This document shows, piece after piece, positions 8,107 to 40,457 of a DNA stretch of 64,000 nt (positions are counted from its first letter, which is position 1; the number at the start of each line of letters is the position of its first letter). The notes beneath the pieces are model-generated. The model was given only the letters and a program-made list of their open reading frames with translations. It did no database searches and was not told the origin of the DNA. Position numbers and translations under genes: made by a program. The stretch lies in NCBI GenBank assembly GCA_044345405.1, contig JBIJBE010000014.1, positions 1 through 64,000 of the forward strand, read 5' to 3'. This DNA comes from Bdellovibrionota bacterium (lineage in GTDB: Bacteria; Bdellovibrionota_C; UBA2361; OMII01).

Positions 8107-10158
8107 ATGATGGACTTTCCTGTACCTTCCTCACATCCTAACAATCCTCAGGCCAGAGAGGGGATCGAACGAATTGTATCGCCCGTGCCGATTGAGAATA
8201 AAGGTCGAGGGGATTCAGAGGGAAGATCAGGCGGTGACAGCGAATCGAGGAGGCAGCGCAAGGGAACTGGGCTAATCGTTCGAGAGTCCGCTCTCGCCAA
8301 ATATTGTGGTGATCTAACAGCGGCGGCGAGGGCGCATAAACTCGATCCGGTGCTCAACCGCGATGAGGAGATCGAGCGAGTGGTGACGATCCTCTCCAAG
8401 CGCGGAAAATGTAACGCGATGCTTATTGGAGAGGCGGGAGTTGGAAAGACGGCTCTCGTTGAGGGGCTTGCCCAACGTATCGTTGAGGAGACAGTTCCAG
8501 AGTGCCTTCTTGGCAAAAGAATATTGGCGCTCGATGTGAGCGCGCTCGTGGCGGGGGCCGAATATCGGGGTCAATTTGAGGAACGCGTTCAGGCTATTCT
8601 CAAAGAGATCTCGGCGTTCAACGATGTCATCCTCTTTATCGATGAGTTCCACACCATCGTATCGCTCGGTGGCGCCGGCGGAGAGCTGAACGCGGGAAAT
8701 ATCCTCAAGCCACCTTTGGCAAGAGGGGAGTTCCAATGTATTGGAGCGACGACTCTGAACGAGTACCGACGTGGCGTCGAGAAGGATAGCGCGTTGGCTC
8801 GACGATTCGAAGCGGTGTTAGTGAATGCGCCCACTCCTGACCAAGCGATCTCGATGCTTGAAGGGGTGCGCTCGCGATACGAGGAGCACCATCACGTGCG
8901 GTACACGGAAGGAGCTCTTCGCGCCGCTGTCGTTCTCTCTGACCGTTATATATCGCGAGGACAACTTCCAGATAAGGCGCTCGATGTGATTGACGAAGCA
9001 GGTTCCGCTAAGAATGTGAATTCGTTCTCTTCAGGCTGCTCGGCCCTCTTTCCTGAGTACAGATTCCAACGACGACCGGTCGTGACAGAGAGGGATGTCG
9101 CGGGAGTTGTAGCTAAAATAAGTGGTATTCCGGTGAACGATATCACCGCGGAGGAGAGCGCTAAGCTGTGTACCCTTGAGTCCTCACTGAAGGAAGTGAT
9201 CATCGGACAAGACGCGGCGTGCGAGAAGATCGCGAAGGCTGTCATCAGAGGACGAGCGGGATTGCAGGGGGACAGACCCAGCTCGTTTCTTTTCGTGGGA
9301 CCTACCGGCGTTGGAAAGACGCAGATCGTGAAGGAGTTGGCGAAGCGTATTTTTGGAGACGAGAAGGCCCTCATACCGATAGACATGTCGGAGTACATGG
9401 AGGCGCACAGTGTCTCCCGATTGATCGGCGCTCCTCCGGGGTACATCGGCTACGAGGATGGGGGACAGTTGACGGAGCGTATTCGACGACATCCCAACTC
9501 TATCATCCTCTTGGATGAGTTCGAGAAGGCGCATCCTAACGTAAGCAAACTCTTGCTCCAGGCCCTTGAGGAGGGACGATTGACCGACGGACAGGGTCGC
9601 CAGGTTAGCCTCAAGAATTCGATCGTGGTTATGACCTCCAATATTGGCGCTCAGACCGACACCGCGAGTAGCGGCGGATTCGGTTTCGCCGCGGTAGTGG
9701 CTGACCATACTACGACCGGTAATGGGGCAAAAAAGGTGACTCAACAGCACTACCTTGAGGCGGTGAAAGATACCTTGCCCCCTGAGTTCGTGAATCGGAT
9801 CGGGTGTATCGTCGCGTTTGATCCGTTGAGCCGCGCCGACCAGAGGAAAATTCTCGACCTTCAGTTGCAGGAGCTTGTGGTTCTCCTTCGGGACACCAAA
9901 GGGGTCACGCTCAAGGTCTCCGAGGAGTCTCGCGCGGTCCTTCTCGCAAAGGGATTTAGCGAGAGTTACGGAGCTCGGCCGTTACGTCGGGCTATTCAGG
10001 ACCTTTTGACGGATAAGATCGCGGACGCCCTCTTGGGACTCGACAAAACTGAAGGGTTAGTATTTACCGCGACTCCGACCGGGTACTCACTTTCGCTCGA
10101 CACCTCGAAGCTCGATACCTCGAAGCTCGATACCTCAGAGCGGGCATACGTTGAGTGA
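8107..10158 (+). CDS. ClpA/ClpC-family double-AAA+ ATPase lacking the N-terminal Clp domain
   Basis: Walker A GEAGVGKT and GPTGVGKT, Walker B ILFIDE and ILLDEFEK, pore loop GAPPGYIGY, FGF loop. ATG 8107 (GGAG upstream) preferred over TTG 7948. Confidence 0.9.
   Translation: MMDFPVPSSHPNNPQAREGIERIVSPVPIENKGRGDSEGRSGGDSESRRQRKGTGLIVRESALAKYCGDLTAAARAHKLDPVLNRDEEIERVVTILSKRGKCNAMLIGEAGVGKTALVEGLAQRIVEETVPECLLGKRILALDVSALVAGAEYRGQFEERVQAILKEISAFNDVILFIDEFHTIVSLGGAGGELNAGNILKPPLARGEFQCIGATTLNEYRRGVEKDSALARRFEAVLVNAPTPDQAISMLEGVRSRYEEHHHVRYTEGALRAAVVLSDRYISRGQLPDKALDVIDEAGSAKNVNSFSSGCSALFPEYRFQRRPVVTERDVAGVVAKISGIPVNDITAEESAKLCTLESSLKEVIIGQDAACEKIAKAVIRGRAGLQGDRPSSFLFVGPTGVGKTQIVKELAKRIFGDEKALIPIDMSEYMEAHSVSRLIGAPPGYIGYEDGGQLTERIRRHPNSIILLDEFEKAHPNVSKLLLQALEEGRLTDGQGRQVSLKNSIVVMTSNIGAQTDTASSGGFGFAAVVADHTTTGNGAKKVTQQHYLEAVKDTLPPEFVNRIGCIVAFDPLSRADQRKILDLQLQELVVLLRDTKGVTLKVSEESRAVLLAKGFSESYGARPLRRAIQDLLTDKIADALLGLDKTEGLVFTATPTGYSLSLDTSKLDTSKLDTSERAYVE
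10096..10136 (+). repeat. 15-bp tandem repeat (about 2.7 copies) encoding LDTSK at the Clp C-terminus
   Basis: ctcgacacctcgaag ctcgatacctcgaag ctcgatacctc. Confidence 0.9.
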
Positions 10159-13063: not shown

Positions 13064-14689
13064 TTGGCGATGTTTGATGCGCTTTTTGGTAACGGGGGTA
13101 ACGAAGTGGTTGAGAAAAGGGTAACGAACTCGGACGGTGAACGGAGCCAAGGGGCACGGGAAACTTCGCGATGGGAAGCTGCGCTCTCGATCCCTTCGCG
13201 CGGAGCGGCGTTCCGAAACATTGAGCATCTTATCGGACCCGAGAAAAATGGGGGCGCATTCCAGGAATCAGCGCTCAACTCGTCGAAAGGTGTCGCGAGC
13301 ACGTTGACCACCCTTTTTCGTCAGATCTCTCCCTACAGAATCCTCACTCCGGCTGAAGAACGACAGGTAACACGAGCGATTCAATCGAGTCGGCAGGAGT
13401 TGCTGGAGGGCTTGTTCTCGTTCCTGCCGGTCGCTCGGGAGGCGGTCGCTCTTCTTCGGGAGGCGACATCGGAGGGGGTTAGCTTTCATCATTCCCGAAT
13501 CTTGCATGTCAGCACAATCGACTCAGCGGCGGAGAAGCATGCCATTGTGGCCATAGCCAAGCGCAATCTTAAGACTATTGACGTGCTGATGAGTCGCTGC
13601 GACGAGCGATGGTTGACGAATGACGGGATGAGAGCGTCGGAGGCTCGGCGCACGGATATCGTCGCAAGCCTTATGAGCGACCGACAAAAGATCGCGACGC
13701 TCTTATCTGAGATAGCGATTCGTCCGGCGTTCCTCGCGGATTTTCTCTCTCAATTTGGAGGGCACGTCGCGACAGCGCGCGCCTTGTATGAGAGCGCTGA
13801 TGAGGGCCTAGATCCCAAGAAGCGAGGCGAGAGCGCGGCCGCGCTCAAGGACCACCTCGAAGCGTCACAGGAGAGCTACGAGACCTTGCTTGAGAGATGG
13901 GATAGAGCATCCCGTGCGCACAGCGACTTCCAGGTCGCGAAAGAGATACTCACCACTCGAAATGTTCGGCTCGCTATTTCCGAAGCTAAAAGATTCGCGA
14001 ACAGGGGGATAGCGCTGGAGGATCTGATTCAAGAGGCGATCAGCGGCCTCATTACCGCCGTTGATAAGTTCGACCCGGGGCGAGGGTGTCGGTTTAGCAC
14101 CTACGCGACGCCGTGGATCCGACAGGCGATGCTTCGATCTATCGATCACACCGCGCGTACGGTACGGATGCCCGGGCCAGTGCTTGGCGCTATTCGAAAA
14201 ATTGAGGACTTTCGCCAAGATTTTCGAGGGCGGCACGGACGCAATCCAAGCCCTGACGAGATAGCGGAGGGCCTGAAAGGAAAGAGCCCACATGTGCCCG
14301 TTACAGCGGCCTTTGTATGGAACACCCAGGTGGTATCACAGCCGATAATGTCCCTAGAAAGTCGGGATGTAGATAATGTGACCGGGGTGAACATGAGGGG
14401 ATCTATTATGGATACTCGCGAGTCCACGACGCGTGAAGTGGAGGATAGGAGCGAGGATGAGCGACGAAAGAGCGAGGTCGATCGGGTGCTGTCTAAAAAT
14501 CTCGATGAGAGACAGTGCCGAATTATTCGTTGGAGGTATGGGCTCGACGGAGATGAGCCGAGAACCCTTGAGGCGATTGGAGATCTCCTCTGTATTACGA
14601 AGGAACGAGTTCGGCAGATTGAGTTGAAGGCCATGGAGATTCTTGAGGCGTCGGAGTTGGAGGCAGTGCATAAGCGGGGGAGAGAGTAG
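13064..14689 (+). CDS. Divergent RpoD-like sigma-70 factor
   Basis: Region 2 (DLIQE...AVDKFD...FSTYATPWIRQA) and region 4 (TLEAIG...TKERVRQIE); long non-conserved region; no acidic region 1.1. Confidence 0.9.
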   Translation: MAMFDALFGNGGNEVVEKRVTNSDGERSQGARETSRWEAALSIPSRGAAFRNIEHLIGPEKNGGAFQESALNSSKGVASTLTTLFRQISPYRILTPAEERQVTRAIQSSRQELLEGLFSFLPVAREAVALLREATSEGVSFHHSRILHVSTIDSAAEKHAIVAIAKRNLKTIDVLMSRCDERWLTNDGMRASEARRTDIVASLMSDRQKIATLLSEIAIRPAFLADFLSQFGGHVATARALYESADEGLDPKKRGESAAALKDHLEASQESYETLLERWDRASRAHSDFQVAKEILTTRNVRLAISEAKRFANRGIALEDLIQEAISGLITAVDKFDPGRGCRFSTYATPWIRQAMLRSIDHTARTVRMPGPVLGAIRKIEDFRQDFRGRHGRNPSPDEIAEGLKGKSPHVPVTAAFVWNTQVVSQPIMSLESRDVDNVTGVNMRGSIMDTRESTTREVEDRSEDERRKSEVDRVLSKNLDERQCRIIRWRYGLDGDEPRTLEAIGDLLCITKERVRQIELKAMEILEASELEAVHKRGRE

Positions 14690-14746
14690 CGGCGCGGCCC
14701 ATCGTGCGAACCAGAGATCCGGGAGCGGCTGTGTTCAAAATCAATA

Positions 14747-15691
14747 TTAAATTGATTGGAATTGAGCGTTATCTCTGAGCATAGCGTTTAGGATAATGAT
14801 TGTTTTCCGCATAGCCGCGACCAAGGCTACCTTGGCAGCCTTTCCCCGGAGTCTAAGGCTTTGATAGTAGGACTTAATGTTTGGGTTGCATCGAATAGCG
14901 GTAAGAGCGCACATGTAGAGCGCGGACCGCACGGCACATCTCCCTCCCCAGATCCTTCGTTTGCCTCTACAAGAGGTGCCACTGTCATCGGCAAACGGAG
15001 CAACTCCAACAAGAGCCGCTATGTGTGATTTGGAGAGAGTTCCTAACTCTGGGAGGAACGCGATGAGAGCTGCGGCAGAGAGCTCTCCGACCCCTTTAAA
15101 GCCCCTGAGAAGAGAGAGTTTTGAGCCGAACTGAGAAGACTGCGACAGTTGCTTAATCTCAGCCTCAAGAGCCTGTCGTTCCTGGGTAAGCCATTTGATG
15201 TGACGTTTAAGGGAACGGATAAGCATCTTATCCTGAATGTCTCCGAGACGATTTTGCTCCTGGGTAATCATGCGTACGATGTCATTTCTTCGCGCCACAA
15301 GAGAGCGAAGCGCTTCAAGCTCCTTGCTGGGAGCTGGAGTGGGAGCAACCTCTACGGTCAGAGCGTAACGAGCAATGATACGGGCATCGATAGAGTCGGT
15401 CTTCGCAAGCTGTCCGACCCCTTTGGCGAAGTCTCTGATTCGTTTGGGATTAACTATGGCTATCGGTATCGAGAGCTCTGTTGCCACCCGAAAGAGGACC
15501 GCATGGTACTTCCCGGTCGACTCTACAACGAGGAACAGCTTGGGAAGCTCCTCCTGTAGTTTTAGCAACTTGGCTTTGATTGCTTGAGCCGTATTGCTGA
15601 TTCGAAACAAACGGCTATCCCTTCCAACGCAGCAATCAAGCTGAGCCTTTGAGACATCGATTCCTATCACATCACTTTCCGTGGTATTCAT
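14747..15691 (-). CDS. IS110 recombinase/transposase
   Basis: RuvC-like DEDD residues (GIDVSK, VESTG, KTDSIDA); Tnp domain serine in APFADDSG; AAGGAG RBS. Confidence 0.95.
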   Translation of the reverse strand: MNTTESDVIGIDVSKAQLDCCVGRDSRLFRISNTAQAIKAKLLKLQEELPKLFLVVESTGKYHAVLFRVATELSIPIAIVNPKRIRDFAKGVGQLAKTDSIDARIIARYALTVEVAPTPAPSKELEALRSLVARRNDIVRMITQEQNRLGDIQDKMLIRSLKRHIKWLTQERQALEAEIKQLSQSSQFGSKLSLLRGFKGVGELSAAALIAFLPELGTLSKSHIAALVGVAPFADDSGTSCRGKRRIWGGRCAVRSALYMCALTAIRCNPNIKSYYQSLRLRGKAAKVALVAAMRKTIIILNAMLRDNAQFQSI

Positions 15692-15719
15692 AGAACTCCT
15701 TGTAGGTGGTCCGGTCTGA

Positions 15720-15915
15720 GGGAGCTCGTCCTTGTACCAATACGAACTGTGGATATTACCTTATCCCGTTCAGGCGGCTGTTCGAGCTTTATCAGAAAGA
15801 ACCGAGGAGGCGTTCCTTGCTCCCATGCGCGTTTAAGCTAGGGCGGTCTCGAACTGCCTCCTCGGTGGACCCCTCTTTCTGCCTCTTCTCTCAAAGCTAC
15901 AAAATTAGGGTCACT
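15720..15915 (-). ncRNA. Bridge RNA of the IS110 element (ends approximate)
   Basis: Target loop closed by the 15856-15866/15801-15811 stem carries guides GACCGCCCU and GGGAG. Donor loop closed by the 15783-15788/15723-15728 stem carries guides ACAGCCGC and UACAAG. All match the actual flanks and junction. Confidence 0.88.
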
Positions 15916-15928
15916 ACCAACATACAAG

Positions 15929-15948
15929 GGCGGTCGTTCCCGACCGCC
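15929..15948. repeat. REP-like palindrome interrupted by the IS110
   Basis: GGCGGTCG-TTCC-CGACCGCC hairpin. Joined with GGGAG at 14721-14725 it resembles the copies at 40340 and 40406. Confidence 0.8.
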
Positions 15949-16071
15949 GTGTTAGGGCCCGTAGAGAAGGTCTTTCTCGATACGCGACATTTCCGGCGAC
16001 CGGCATGTTCCGAGTAGCGTCGAGGGAGGCCGATCACCCTCCCTGGTCGCGCACACGAGATTTTTACCAAC

Positions 16072-16100
16072 AAAAAAACCCCAGAGATCGCTCCCTGAGG
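16072..16100 (-). terminator. Intrinsic terminator of metK
   Basis: CCTCAGGGA-gcga-TCTCTGGGG followed by T7 on the minus strand. Confidence 0.75.
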
Positions 16101-16127
16101 CTTCCTTGCGCGCATGCGTTGAAGCGC

Positions 16128-17303
16128 TTACTTGATCGCCGCCTTGAGAGCGTCGACCTTATCTGTTCGCTCCCAGGAGAAGCTACCATCAGCGCCGGCC
16201 TCACGACCGAAGTGGCCGTAGGTGGAGGTCGCGCGATAGATAGGCTTCAAGAGGTCAAGGGAACGGATAATTCCGCGAGGTGTGAGATCGAAGACCTCTT
16301 GTACCGCGCTGGATATCTTCGATTCGGGAACCGTTCCTGTGCCGAATGTGTTCACGTACACCGAGACTGGCTTCGCGACTCCGATCGCGTAGGCTACCTG
16401 AACTTCGCACTTTCGCGCGAGGCCAGCCGCTACAACGTTCTTGGCGATGTAACGAGCGGCGTATGCCGCCGAGCGGTCCACCTTTGAGGGATCCTTTCCT
16501 GAGAAAGCTCCTCCTCCGTGACGAGCGTATCCACCGTAGGTGTCGACGATGATCTTTCGACCAGTGAGACCGCAATCACCAACTGGTCCACCGATAACGA
16601 ATCGACCAGTAGGATTGATGAGGTAGCGTGTTTTTGGCGTGAGGTAGGTGTCAGGGATTACCTTCTTTACGATCTTCTCAACGACGTACTCCTCTACATC
16701 TTTCAAGGAAACGCTCTCCGCGTGTTGCGTTGAGATAACGACGGTATCAACCGCGTGAGGACGTCCATCTCGATATTCCACCGTCACTTGGCTCTTCGCG
16801 TCGGGCTTCAGGAAACTCGATTTGTCTGAGTGCCGGGCCTTGGCGAGCGCCTTCACTAATTGGTGCGAGAGAGAGATCGGGAGGGGCATCAGCTCTGGGG
16901 TTTCATCGCACGCGAATCCGAACATGAGACCTTGATCGCCGGCGCCTTGTTCCTTGTAGAGTCCCTCGTGATCGTTGACACCCATACTGATGTCCGGGGA
17001 TTGCTGACTAATGAAGGTCATCACTGAGCAGCTCTGCGCGTCGAAGCCGAGCGCTGGGTCGTTGTAGCCGATATCGTGAATCACTGAGCGGGCGAGCTTC
17101 TCGTAGTTTACGTTTTGGGATGATGTAATTTCGCCGGCGAGGATCACCACGTCGTTTTTGACGAGGGTCTCGCACGCGACGCGCGCCGCCGGATCGTTCT
17201 TGAGGAAGGCGTCCAACATCGCGTCGCTTAATTGGTCCGCGACCTTGTCTGGATGTCCTTCGGAGACTGACTCGGAGGTGAAGAGGTATTGTTCTGTGGC
17301 CAC
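16128..17303 (-). CDS. metK: S-adenosylmethionine synthetase
   Basis: [28 protein letters not shown] motifs. Confidence 0.98.
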
Positions 17304-38385: not shown

Positions 38386-38940
38386 ATGACCGTTAAGAAT
38401 CCCTGGCAGCGCCGAGGCAGCAAGCTCGTATACTCAAATCCGTGGATCACGGTTCGTGAGGATGATGTCATTACGCCTGGCGGTAAACCGGGTATTTACG
38501 GCGTCGTCGAGACCCGAATCGCCACCGGGGTTGTCGCCCTTACCGAGAAGAACGAGATCTATCTCGTTGGGCAATATCGCTACCCCGTTGATCAGTATTC
38601 TTGGGAGATCCCCGAGGGGGGATCTGAGATTGATGAGGACCCGATGGTGACCGCGAAGCGGGAGCTTCGTGAGGAGACGGGGCTTGAGGCCGAGTCGTGG
38701 GAGCAGCTCGGTGGTGAGATTCACCTCAGTAATTGCTTTTCATCGGAGCGAGGGTTTCTCTATCTCGCCCGAGGATTGCGAGAGGGGGTCGCTGAACCGG
38801 ATCACACAGAGGAGCTTCAGGTAAAGAAGATCCCTTTCGCCGAGTGCCTCGCGATGGTTGATCGCGGGGAGATAAAGGACAGCCTTACCGTTATCGCCGT
38901 CTTACGTATCGCACGTGTTTTGGGTACGAGGAGCGCGTGA
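38386..38940 (+). CDS. NUDIX hydrolase (ADP-ribose pyrophosphatase-like)
   Basis: Nudix box GG..EIDEDPMVTAKRELREETG; QYRYP. Confidence 0.92.
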   Translation: MTVKNPWQRRGSKLVYSNPWITVREDDVITPGGKPGIYGVVETRIATGVVALTEKNEIYLVGQYRYPVDQYSWEIPEGGSEIDEDPMVTAKRELREETGLEAESWEQLGGEIHLSNCFSSERGFLYLARGLREGVAEPDHTEELQVKKIPFAECLAMVDRGEIKDSLTVIAVLRIARVLGTRSA

Positions 38941-40313
38941 ACTTTCTCTCGACCCGTTCATCGAAGAGTCTCGTTCGGGAAGGGCTTCTCGACGCGGCCA
39001 AGATGGGCGCGACCGAGACCTATCTCGGCGCGTTCGGCGTCTTTCTCGGAGGCGCTCCCCTTCAGATAGGGGCACTCGCGACCTTGCCACCTCTTATAGG
39101 GGCGATCACACAGTCGATCGGGATGCGGCTCAGCGAGCGCGCGACGAGTCGTCGAGGTATCGTGGCGAGCCTCATGAGGCTTCAGTCCCTCTTGTTACTC
39201 CCAATAGCTTCTATCCCATTTCTTTTTGATTCGGGATCGAAGGCGGTTACCGCCCTGATCGGTGTCGTTGTGCTGTATCATATCACGATCGGTCTGATCG
39301 CCCCGGTATGGAATAGTTTGGTGGGAGACCTCCTACCGCCACTATCGCGTGGTGAGTTCTTCGGATTTCGCAATAAGTGGATGGCGATCGTAACCTTTAG
39401 CGCTGTGGTGCTCGCGGGTCAAACGATCCATTGGTTTAACGAGTTCGGCCTTGAGGCCTGGGGATTCGTCCTCGTCTTCCTTTTCTCCGCGGTTGCTCGG
39501 TGGTTCTCCGCTTCGGCCTTTAGGGGAGTGGACGACGTATCGCTGCACGTGCCCGATGAATCAAAGTTCACCTTCTGGCAATTTATCGCCCGGGCGCGGT
39601 ACTCCAACTTTGTGAAGTTCGTATTTTTCGTTTCGTGTATGAACTTTGCGGCCTCGATCTCGGGTCCATACTTCGCGATGTACATGCTGAAGGACCTCTC
39701 GCTCTCCTACGCGGATTACACCGTGGTGGTCGCCGCCGCCGTGCTCGCGCAGTTCGTCGTGATGCGCTCGTGGGGCGCGATGAGTGACCAGTTCGGTAAT
39801 CGAACGATCTTGAAGGTGTGTGGCACGTTGGTGGCGTTTAACCCCGTATTGTGGTTGATCTCGTCGAATTTCTGGTACGTGCTCTTCATTCAATTTTATA
39901 GTGGGATCTTTTGGGCGGGGTTTACCTTGGCGGCGGCGAACTTTGTGTTCGACGCCGTAACGCCTCCAAAGAGAGCGAGGTGTGTCGCCTACCAGGCGAT
40001 TATCAACGGCTTCCTCGTTTTTAGCGGATCGTGTGTTGGTGGTTGGGTGGTGCATCTGGTCCCGGACGTATGGGTAGAACACCTTGGTTTATGGGTGCCG
40101 CACTCGAAGTTCCTCGCGCTGTTCGTACTCTCTGGCGTCCTGAGAATGGGGGTGATGCTGTTCCTCTTCCCCGCCTTTAAAGAGGTGCGACAGGTCGAAA
40201 GTATTCGAGGTCATCAGCTCCTGATCCGGGTGACTTCGCTCCGCCCGTTGTGGGGTGGAACCTTCTCGTTTATCTCGCAGCGGTATTCGGAGCGGCGGGG
40301 GAGGAGGGAGTAG
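38937..40313 (+). CDS. MFS transporter
   Basis: About 12 hydrophobic segments; WGAMSDQFGNR motif. Confidence 0.9.
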   Translation: MNFLSTRSSKSLVREGLLDAAKMGATETYLGAFGVFLGGAPLQIGALATLPPLIGAITQSIGMRLSERATSRRGIVASLMRLQSLLLLPIASIPFLFDSGSKAVTALIGVVVLYHITIGLIAPVWNSLVGDLLPPLSRGEFFGFRNKWMAIVTFSAVVLAGQTIHWFNEFGLEAWGFVLVFLFSAVARWFSASAFRGVDDVSLHVPDESKFTFWQFIARARYSNFVKFVFFVSCMNFAASISGPYFAMYMLKDLSLSYADYTVVVAAAVLAQFVVMRSWGAMSDQFGNRTILKVCGTLVAFNPVLWLISSNFWYVLFIQFYSGIFWAGFTLAAANFVFDAVTPPKRARCVAYQAIINGFLVFSGSCVGGWVVHLVPDVWVEHLGLWVPHSKFLALFVLSGVLRMGVMLFLFPAFKEVRQVESIRGHQLLIRVTSLRPLWGGTFSFISQRYSERRGRRE

Positions 40314-40339: not shown

Positions 40340-40431
40340 GGGAGGGCGACCGTCCTCGGTCGCCGTGTTTCGTCCGGCGAAATCGATGCGCGATGCGCGA
40401 TTTTTCGGCGACCGGGGACGGTCGCCCTCCC
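40340..40431. repeat. Inverted pair of REP-like palindromes (BIME-like)
   Basis: GGGAGGGCGACCGTCCTCGGTCGCCG (40340-40365) and an inverted near-identical copy (40406-40431) between convergent genes. Confidence 0.88.
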
Positions 40432-40457
40432 GCCATTCCGGGCCGTAAGCGTCAGGA

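Follow-up and report, generated by a model that had tools for sequence, protein, structure and literature searches.

An IS621-like insertion sequence probably directed by its bridge RNA into one stem type of a resident REP/BIME-like repeat family in a freshwater Bdellovibrionota genome

REP sequences have been known for a long time to be targets of IS110-family insertion sequences (Tobes and Pareja 2006, PMC1525189), and a REP is also the natural target of IS621 (Choi et al. 2003, as cited). The discovery of the bridge RNA rested on large-scale guide-target covariation, and IS621 tolerates double mismatches poorly (PMC11208160). In Pseudomonas putida, ISPpu9 inserts into REP and has seven copies in KT2440 (PMC12288879), and a conserved 5′ stem-loop supplies, with its 3′ arm, the left target of ISPpu10, of whose targets 97.1% are noncoding and 40.8% occur in convergent pairs <200 bp apart (10.64898/2026.03.19.712850). 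Given that IS621, ISPpu9, and ISPpu10 had already established REP targeting, the targeting strategy itself was known, and the understanding of how such elements work is unchanged by the present case. What it offers is a probable case of bridge-RNA targeting in nature from beyond the Proteobacteria that have been studied to date, with four guide states and their matching targets in a single genus.

Here, we analyzed a stretch of 64,000 nucleotides (the window) from a Bdellovibrionota metagenome-assembled genome (GCA_044345405.1, contig JBIJBE010000014.1, positions 1 to 64,000), in which an IS110-family element splits a repeat unit lying between convergent sigma-70 and metK ORFs. We consider it highly probable that this is an IS621-like element guided by RNA into one stem type of a resident REP/BIME-like family. 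The features of the locus are as follows.

13064 to 14689, + strand: sigma-70 family ORF, with its stop directly before the repeat unit
14690 to 14725, + strand: left remnant of the split repeat unit, linker-like sequence plus GGGAG head (14721 to 14725), as compared with the family linker and head
14724 to 14725: RE-side copy of the core dinucleotide, AG on the + strand and CT in IS orientation
14726 to 15928, − strand: IS110-family insertion sequence, 1203 bp including one copy of the CT core (15927 to 15928; AG on the + strand)
14726 to 14746, − strand: right end (RE), 21 nt, ending ...AACACAGCCG, carrying ACAGCCG (left donor half-site) and TTGATT (14739 to 14744; −35-like)
14747 to 15691, − strand: ORF of the 314-aa transposase/recombinase, which combines DEDD RuvC-like and Tnp domains
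15692 to 15928, − strand: left end (LE), 237 nt, noncoding, predicted bridge RNA, starting CT-TGTATGTT (right donor half-site), with a −10-like TATGTT (15919 to 15924)
15929 to 16044, + strand: rest of the split repeat unit, hairpin GGCGGTCG-TTCC-CGACCGCC, GTGTT tail, spacer, and second hairpin, which has an expanded loop and ends in CTCCC
16128 to 17303, − strand: S-adenosylmethionine synthetase (metK) ORF, convergent with the sigma-70 family gene

The boundaries were set at 14726 to 15928 because eight related copies share the same ends, LE CTTGTATGTT... and RE ...AACACAGCCG, followed by the CT core. These termini are not mutual inverted repeats. The CT core is present at both junctions in all eight copies, seven of which measure 1199 to 1203 bp (the eighth, L004, has 1215 bp with a run of N). 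Excising the element together with one core copy rejoins GGGAG (14721 to 14725) to the hairpin and its GTGTT tail (15929 to 15953), so that the arrangement GGGAG-GGCGGTCG-TTCC-CGACCGCC-GTGTT, which the sequence-only reading had predicted for the empty site, was recovered exactly as written. Within the 85-contig assembly, the body of the element is single copy (its only blastn match is to itself), and its GC content is 0.507, against 0.554 for the window. Two further IS110-family ORFs of the same genome (C49:28535-29449, 304 aa, and C25:7645-8688, 347 aa) belong to other lineages and lie neither in nor near the repeats.

The 314-aa protein matched PF01548 (DEDD_Tnp_IS110; E value of 1.6e-26, 93.4 bits) and PF02371 (Transposase_20; E value of 6.9e-18, 65.3 bits), both above the cutoff, and aligned over its full length (residues 7 to 311) with the IS621 transposase 8wt6 (E value of 6.1e-32, 114 bits). 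The reading frame is intact. Its alignment to IS621 preserves the motifs IGID, E-[AS]-TG, KTD..DAR, and SG-[ST]-S, presumably the catalytic positions. The element thus resembles IS621 in having the same two protein domains, a CT core at both junctions, and a 5′ (predicted) bridge RNA with target and donor loops. It differs in its host, an uncultured freshwater genus of metagenome-assembled genomes, in the moderate protein similarity (114 bits), and in being known here from sequence; its target, a GGGAG/CTCCC-framed repeat, is unrelated in sequence to the enterobacterial REPs. An Rfam scan of positions 14500 to 16300 returned only two subthreshold chance matches (21.9 and 17.2 bits, against gathering values of 55 and 60).

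As a separate observation, the + strand terminus of the element, CGGCTGTGTT (14726 to 14735), resembles the REP tail CGCCGTGTT (15945 to 15953), so that the left junction still reads as a shortened repeat head plus tail after insertion. This likeness may be a coincidence or a relic of donor-site evolution.

The noncoding LE is predicted to fold into two domains, an internal loop closed by a long stem and, after it, another stem-loop (RNAalifold and RNAfold agree; z score of −2.8). Five of the 45 pairs in the consensus fold are compensatory, with no pair count for the donor-loop helices, which an indel misaligns in alignment A2. We assigned the following parts.

15802 to 15865, − strand: target-binding loop with its closing stem, CCGAGGAGGC.GTTC (15851 to 15865) paired with GAAC.GCCTCCTCGG (15802 to 15815)
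15840 to 15848, − strand: left target guide (LTG), GACCGCCCT, 9/9 identical to the 7 flanking nt plus CT on the LE side and placed at the 5′ side of the target-binding loop
15820 to 15827, − strand: right target guide (RTG), CATGGGAG, placed at the 3′ side of the target-binding loop; its GGGAG (15824 to 15820) is complementary to the core CT plus CCC of the right flank
15724 to 15787, − strand: donor-binding loop with outer stem GCTCG/CGAGC, an assignment less certain than that of the target loop
15773 to 15781, − strand: left donor guide (LDG), ACAGCCGCC, matching the RE end plus core at 8/9, the core T being the mismatch
15731 to 15736, − strand: right donor guide (RDG), TACAAG, complementary to CTTGTA at the LE start

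The stem of the target loop comprises 14 pairs in RNAalifold, two of them compensatory and changed between the two clades of the alignment, and the single-sequence fold is concordant. Left guide and left target share their sense, and the right guide runs antisense to its target, the same pattern as the strand rule described for IS621 (PMC11208160). Having the sequence of the top strand across the left target and core, the LTG would base pair with the bottom one. The pairing of the RTG extends over 5 bp in the window copy and 7 bp in L001, and the RDG match is 4 to 6 nt long (just 4 to 5 nt in the L002 group). Handshake pairing would join the base after AG of the RTG (C) to donor position 7 (G) and the base after AAG of the RDG (G) to target position 7 (C), a pattern also described for the IS621 handshake guides (PMC11208158). 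Joining RE to LE would give TTGATT-N17-TATGTT, a putative sigma-70-like junction promoter existing on the circular form alone; both TTGAT[TC] and TATGTT are conserved in 8/8 copies.

Put together, the element would transpose through a circular intermediate and be inserted by an RNA-guided DEDD recombinase, its 5′ noncoding end giving rise to a two-loop bridge RNA. The LTG would read a REP-like hairpin through its 3′ arm and the adjoining CT core, and GGGAG of the right guide would read CT plus CCC, that is, the constant CTCCC frame of the repeat, with the donor-binding loop reading the joined ends of the element itself (ACAGCCG-CT-TGTA). The predicted target is the GACCGCC stem type of a mostly extragenic, BIME-like superfamily, with ca. 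110 landing sites. The orientation of insertion relative to the unit would be fixed, because just one of the two hairpin types in each unit matches the guide.

The repeat family can be followed from a second, uninterrupted copy in the window.

40340 to 40434, + strand: intact empty unit of the GGTCGCC stem type, two inverted hairpins in a GGGAG...CTCCC frame (E value of 2.6e-15)

This unit reads GGGAG-GGCGACCG-TCCT-CGGTCGCC-GTGTT at 40340 to 40369, with its inverted partner at 40406 to 40431; these strings and the one at 15929 were all found where the sequence-only reading had placed them. It had also set both loci between convergent genes, which agrees with the ORF pairs 13064-14689/16128-17303 and 38937-40313(+)/40458-41294(−), the latter pair adjoining the intact unit. 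After one nhmmer iteration, 15927 to 16003 (E value of 9.7e-11) and 40340 to 40434 (E value of 2.6e-15) were recovered as one family, as had been claimed for the two units. The first half of the canonical unit is GGGAG-GGCGGTCA-TTCC-TGACCGCC-GYGTT followed by a spacer of ca. 45 nt, and the second half is GGCGAGCA-GGAA-TGCTCGCC-CTCCC followed by a linker of ca. 20 nt. Units thus span ca. 95 to 115 bp, with two 8-bp hairpins in opposite orientation inside the GGGAG...CTCCC frame and outer inverted repeats GGGAGGGCG...CGCCCTCCC, and they often form head-to-tail tandem arrays with a period of 115 bp. As single-stranded DNA, hairpins with an 8-bp stem and a 4-nt loop folded at −11.2 and −11.3 kcal/mol (z scores of −4.7 and −4.1), and the whole 40340-40434 unit folded at −44.2 kcal/mol (z score of −7.8).

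Further copies were found throughout the genome. The flank at 15927 to 15999 matched 17 further places on seven contigs by blastn, several of them exactly 115 bp apart, and an nhmmer profile built from two units gave 212 matches on both strands of the 85-contig genome. After one iteration and removal of overlaps, the census comprised 224 nonredundant units on 50 of the 85 contigs, covering 20,668 of 3,588,130 bases (0.6%). This is an undercount, since 16 of the 170 contig ends stop <300 bp from a unit; the superfamily fragments the assemblies of these lake bacteria. Only 36 of the 224 units fell completely within an ORF (150 aa or longer), compared to 1566 of 2000 random intervals, an approximate figure that relies on mechanically called ORFs. 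The search therefore supported the expectation of a multicopy, mostly extragenic family. The motif GGGAGGGCG occurs 292 times in the genome (55 expected), and the 12-mer that includes CCC, GACCGCCCTCCC, was counted 76 times where base composition predicts 0.94. A hairpin of 8 bp with a 4-nt loop followed by CTCC was present at 327 sites genome-wide. Counting the 7-mers before CTCC gave GGTCGCC 146, GACCGCC 110, GCGCGCC 45, and GCTCGCC 42 times, the stem types differing through compensatory changes; 90 of the GACCGCC sites lie within an 8-bp/4-nt hairpin.

Several units carry additional sequence. In some of them, ca. 30 inserted nt interrupt the loop of the hairpin of GACCGCC type, GGCGGTCATTCC-[CCCCTACGCTAAAGCTACGGGGGACAAGCC]-TGACCGCC (C57:31800-32100 and ca. 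20 other places, outside the window), and a related motif, GCTACGNGGGACANGC, occurs 20 times; these look like a second small element nesting in hairpin loops. The second hairpin of the split unit (15997 to 16044) has an expanded loop (…TTCCGAGTAGCGTCGAGGGAGG…), with the same variant at C76:61277-61329 and a similar one at C67:66012-66143, a rare subvariant of the unit.

The form of the family is that of the Proteobacteria REP/BIME: short GC-rich imperfect palindromes in hundreds of copies, mostly extragenic, in alternating clusters and tandem arrays. Elsewhere, the head motif of REP is the tetranucleotide GTAG; here, in contrast, the head is GGGAG, the two hairpins form a fixed module of ca. 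95 to 115 bp, nested loop insertions are frequent, and there is no Y1 gene within 12 kb. A RAYT/TnpA(REP) gene flanked by these repeats, as envisaged by the sequence-only reading, was not found. The genome encodes seven paralogous PF01797-like (Y1_Tnp, HUH) ORFs of 324 to 331 aa (L017 to L023, at C18:70847-71821, C43:42658-43668, C52:36929-37915, C26:119351-120325, C67:31267-32241, C69:9360-10334, and C22:2698-3672), and for none of the seven is there a repeat unit within 12 kb (the nearest is at least 12 kb away or not on the contig). Each is preceded by short tandem repeats of its own with small hairpins, for instance GTAGCCGGGCTAC or GTAGGGGGGCTAC, and 13 of the 17 occurrences of CTGTAG[CG][CG]GGGCTAC are on contigs bearing Y1_Tnp genes (C26, C67, C22, and C69). 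These ORFs may constitute an independent Y1 family, mobile or domesticated, that has repeats of its own. With no RAYT nearby, we call the repeat family REP/BIME-like in form, the defining link to a RAYT being absent from it. A two-hairpin superfamily of this kind, without an adjacent RAYT, is apparently undescribed; our literature search on REP-type repeats in Bdellovibrionota returned no relevant description, although it was too generic to claim that none is in print.

The motif is enriched in only some congeners. Against a reversed control, we counted 292/65 in the genome of the window (G000, 85 contigs), 229/47 in G015, 126/30 in G006, 93/47 in G019, and 77/39 in G018; of other families of the order, 12 genomes were searched, without clear enrichment. 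These counts bear on whether the repeats could be MITEs of the element, or be spread by it, instead of an independent host family that serves as its target. The likeness between the RE terminus and the REP tail and the outer inverted repeats of the units would fit such an origin. However, the body of the element has no blastn similarity to the units, there are 224 units and one element, units bounded by the LE and RE termini with CT cores were absent from the census, and the repeats are abundant in congeners where the element was not found (G006 and G018). We regard this origin as very improbable and treat the repeats as a resident family.

Guides and flanks were compared among the window copy and seven relatives, L001 to L004 from species genomes and L041 to L043 from metagenome contigs, with 68 to 94% amino acid identity; these are the 7 loci with at least 68% identity out of 96, the other 89 having 28 to 62%. 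The left guide matched its own left target at 9/9 positions in the window copy and L041 (both GACCGCC), in L001 (GGTCGCC), and in each of L002, L003, L004, and L043 (ACGGGCC), and at 8/9 in L042 (guide CCGCGCC, flank CCCCGCC). Compared with the flanks of the other guide states, guides matched at 5 to 7 of 9 positions (eight copies, four states). The seven left-guide positions are the most variable block of an otherwise conserved RNA, and the right guide covaries as well, GGG with flank CCC and CGG with flank CCG. With four guide states and eight copies in one genus, few independent events lie behind this covariation.

A chance landing in a repeat, with a coincidental 9-mer identity, might be entertained given that this genome by itself offers a single insertion. 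Nevertheless, the repeats make up 0.6% of the bases, the probability of finding a given 9-mer anywhere in the 237-nt LE, on either strand, is ca. 0.002, and the same aligned column matches the flank in 8/8 copies with four sequences. The covariation effectively refutes coincidence, to which we attach a negligible probability.

A different context was observed for L041, whose recombinase is 94% identical and whose guide is the same. It lies in another tandem repeat with a period of ca. 100 bp, reading GGGGCGGGCT.TGACCGCCCGTAAGGACCGCC, then the CT core, then CCTTG... (L041:1-700 and 1643-1900), so that the same 11-mer is used in an unrelated repeat context.

In all copies, a hairpin or palindrome contributes its 3′ arm as the left target. 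This would also be expected if a protein (or a DNA structure) that recognizes the REP hairpin mainly picked the target, leaving the guide-like 9-mer as a secondary feature or a by-product, and a target-encoded 5′ stem-loop has been described as an added specificity determinant of ISPpu10 (10.64898/2026.03.19.712850). However, the seven guide positions shift with the flank in four states while the remaining RNA is conserved, and L041 keeps guide and 11-mer in a different repeat with a long-loop hairpin. Together, the guide-flank covariation and the L041 context indicate that structure is probably an added layer and not the sole determinant; we hold target choice mainly by hairpin recognition to be improbable and prefer RNA guidance.

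The comparison extends to the targets available in each genome. There are 110 copies of the 11-nt target GACCGCCCTCC and 76 of the 12-mer with CCC in the genome of the window, all of them empty. For the four relatives whose genomes could be searched, all in the genus of the window, counts were as follows.

G001: own 11-mer GGTCGCCCTCC 22 (reversed control 1); GACCGCCCTCC 2; ACGGGCCCTCC 1
G002: own 11-mer ACGGGCCCTCC 45 (reversed control 1); GACCGCCCTCC 65; GGTCGCCCTCC 87
G003: own 11-mer ACGGGCCCTCC 33 (reversed control 5); GACCGCCCTCC 51; GGTCGCCCTCC 51
G004: own 11-mer ACGGGCCCTCC 204 (reversed control 0); GACCGCCCTCC 16; GGTCGCCCTCC 21

The predicted 11-mer was thus enriched in 4/4 genomes. 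The guide always matches a resident family but not always its most abundant type; in G002 and G003, the type of the own target is less abundant than the other two stem types (45 versus 65 and 87, and 33 versus 51 and 51). The central proposal of the sequence-only reading, a guide programmed against a resident multicopy REP/BIME-like family in parallel to IS621, was borne out by the 9/9 flank match, the covariation, and this enrichment. With a single copy of the element in this genome, the evidence for enrichment is drawn from the comparison across genomes, each relative being enriched for its own 11-mer. The units at 40340 and 40406 (GGTCGCCCT) do match the left guide at 7/9 positions, as had been counted, and it is mechanistically reasonable that they would be poor targets; yet this mismatch does not explain why they are empty, given that the 110 perfectly matching sites are empty too. 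As with ISPpu9 and ISPpu10, insertion is into a REP-type repeat; as with ISPpu10, a hairpin provides the left target with its 3′ arm, and sites are paired, 96 of the 110 having an opposite-strand REP-type site <200 bp away. Unlike the seven copies of ISPpu9, there is one assembled copy here, and the repeat sequence and the lineage differ.

Of the 36 genomes of the family, five were found to carry the lineage of the element, that of the window among them; all five belong to one genus and have one assembled copy each. We found no sign of recent activity in the genome of the window, with one copy against 110 empty perfect sites. A preinsertion allele was not found among 35 genomes of the genus searched with the end of metK (nine loci inspected); the closest metK-end locus was 84% identical, and the sequence beyond metK is not conserved. 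In one congener (L128, G019:C366), two ACGGGCC-type units lie ca. 400 nt past the end of metK; the metK 3′ flank thus bears repeats in more than a single species, with sequences that are not orthologous. In three DNA runs (lake-water metagenome contigs, compared over 14300 to 16400), neither a contig joining 14725 to 15929 nor an RE-LE circle junction was seen, a result that does not imply absence of the empty allele or the junction, because assembled contigs lose rare variants. One joint of 15664 to 15769 (side 21, in X16 only) and several loose ends were discarded as coming from related copies of the element or other repeat loci.

In a metatranscriptome run (X20), a single contig of 185 nt covered 15699 to 15881 with no differences, and nothing else of the 2101 bases from 14300 to 16400. 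Its span corresponds to LE positions 48 to 230, that is, to the predicted bridge RNA; the recombinase ORF, the end of the sigma gene, and the end of metK were uncovered in this run. We take this contig as a hint, given that it is one contig from one library, in which strand, ends, and level are not readable and DNA carry-over is possible.

The low copy number leads one to ask if the element is an inactive relic, its guide-target match recording a past event and the element now being immobile in this lineage. That would agree with the single copy set against 110 perfect sites, with the one assembled copy per genome in the four carrier congeners, and with the failure to see an empty allele or a circle junction in the three DNA runs. 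On the other hand, the ORF is intact with the motifs conserved in IS621, the ends are intact and conserved, the bridge-RNA region was recovered from an RNA library, and draft assemblies of this kind collapse multicopy insertion sequences. IS110 elements are typically low copy in any case. We therefore judge immobility unlikely and favor an RNA-guided element that may still be active.

A broader scenario can be sketched, though we consider it doubtful. Within one freshwater genus, the seven left-guide positions would have been reprogrammed at least three times, moving an IS621-like element among coresident stem variants (GACCGCC, GGTCGCC, CCGCGCC, and ACGGGCC) of a RAYT-free superfamily, with the constant CT-CC frame read by the unchanging core and right guide. 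Such a design, a constant frame with a variable stem, would make natural guide switching in 2-nt steps viable, and the recombinase might also expand, delete, or invert the 115-bp arrays through unit-unit recombination.

In practical terms, the element and its RNA can now be labeled confidently in annotation, and bridge-recombinase engineering gains a compact orthologue (314 aa, with a predicted RNA of ca. 185 nt) with a GC-rich natural target. Elsewhere in the window, positions 10095 to 10136 contain 2.8 copies of a 15-bp tandem repeat, GCTCGATACCTCGAA, unrelated to the element and its repeats.
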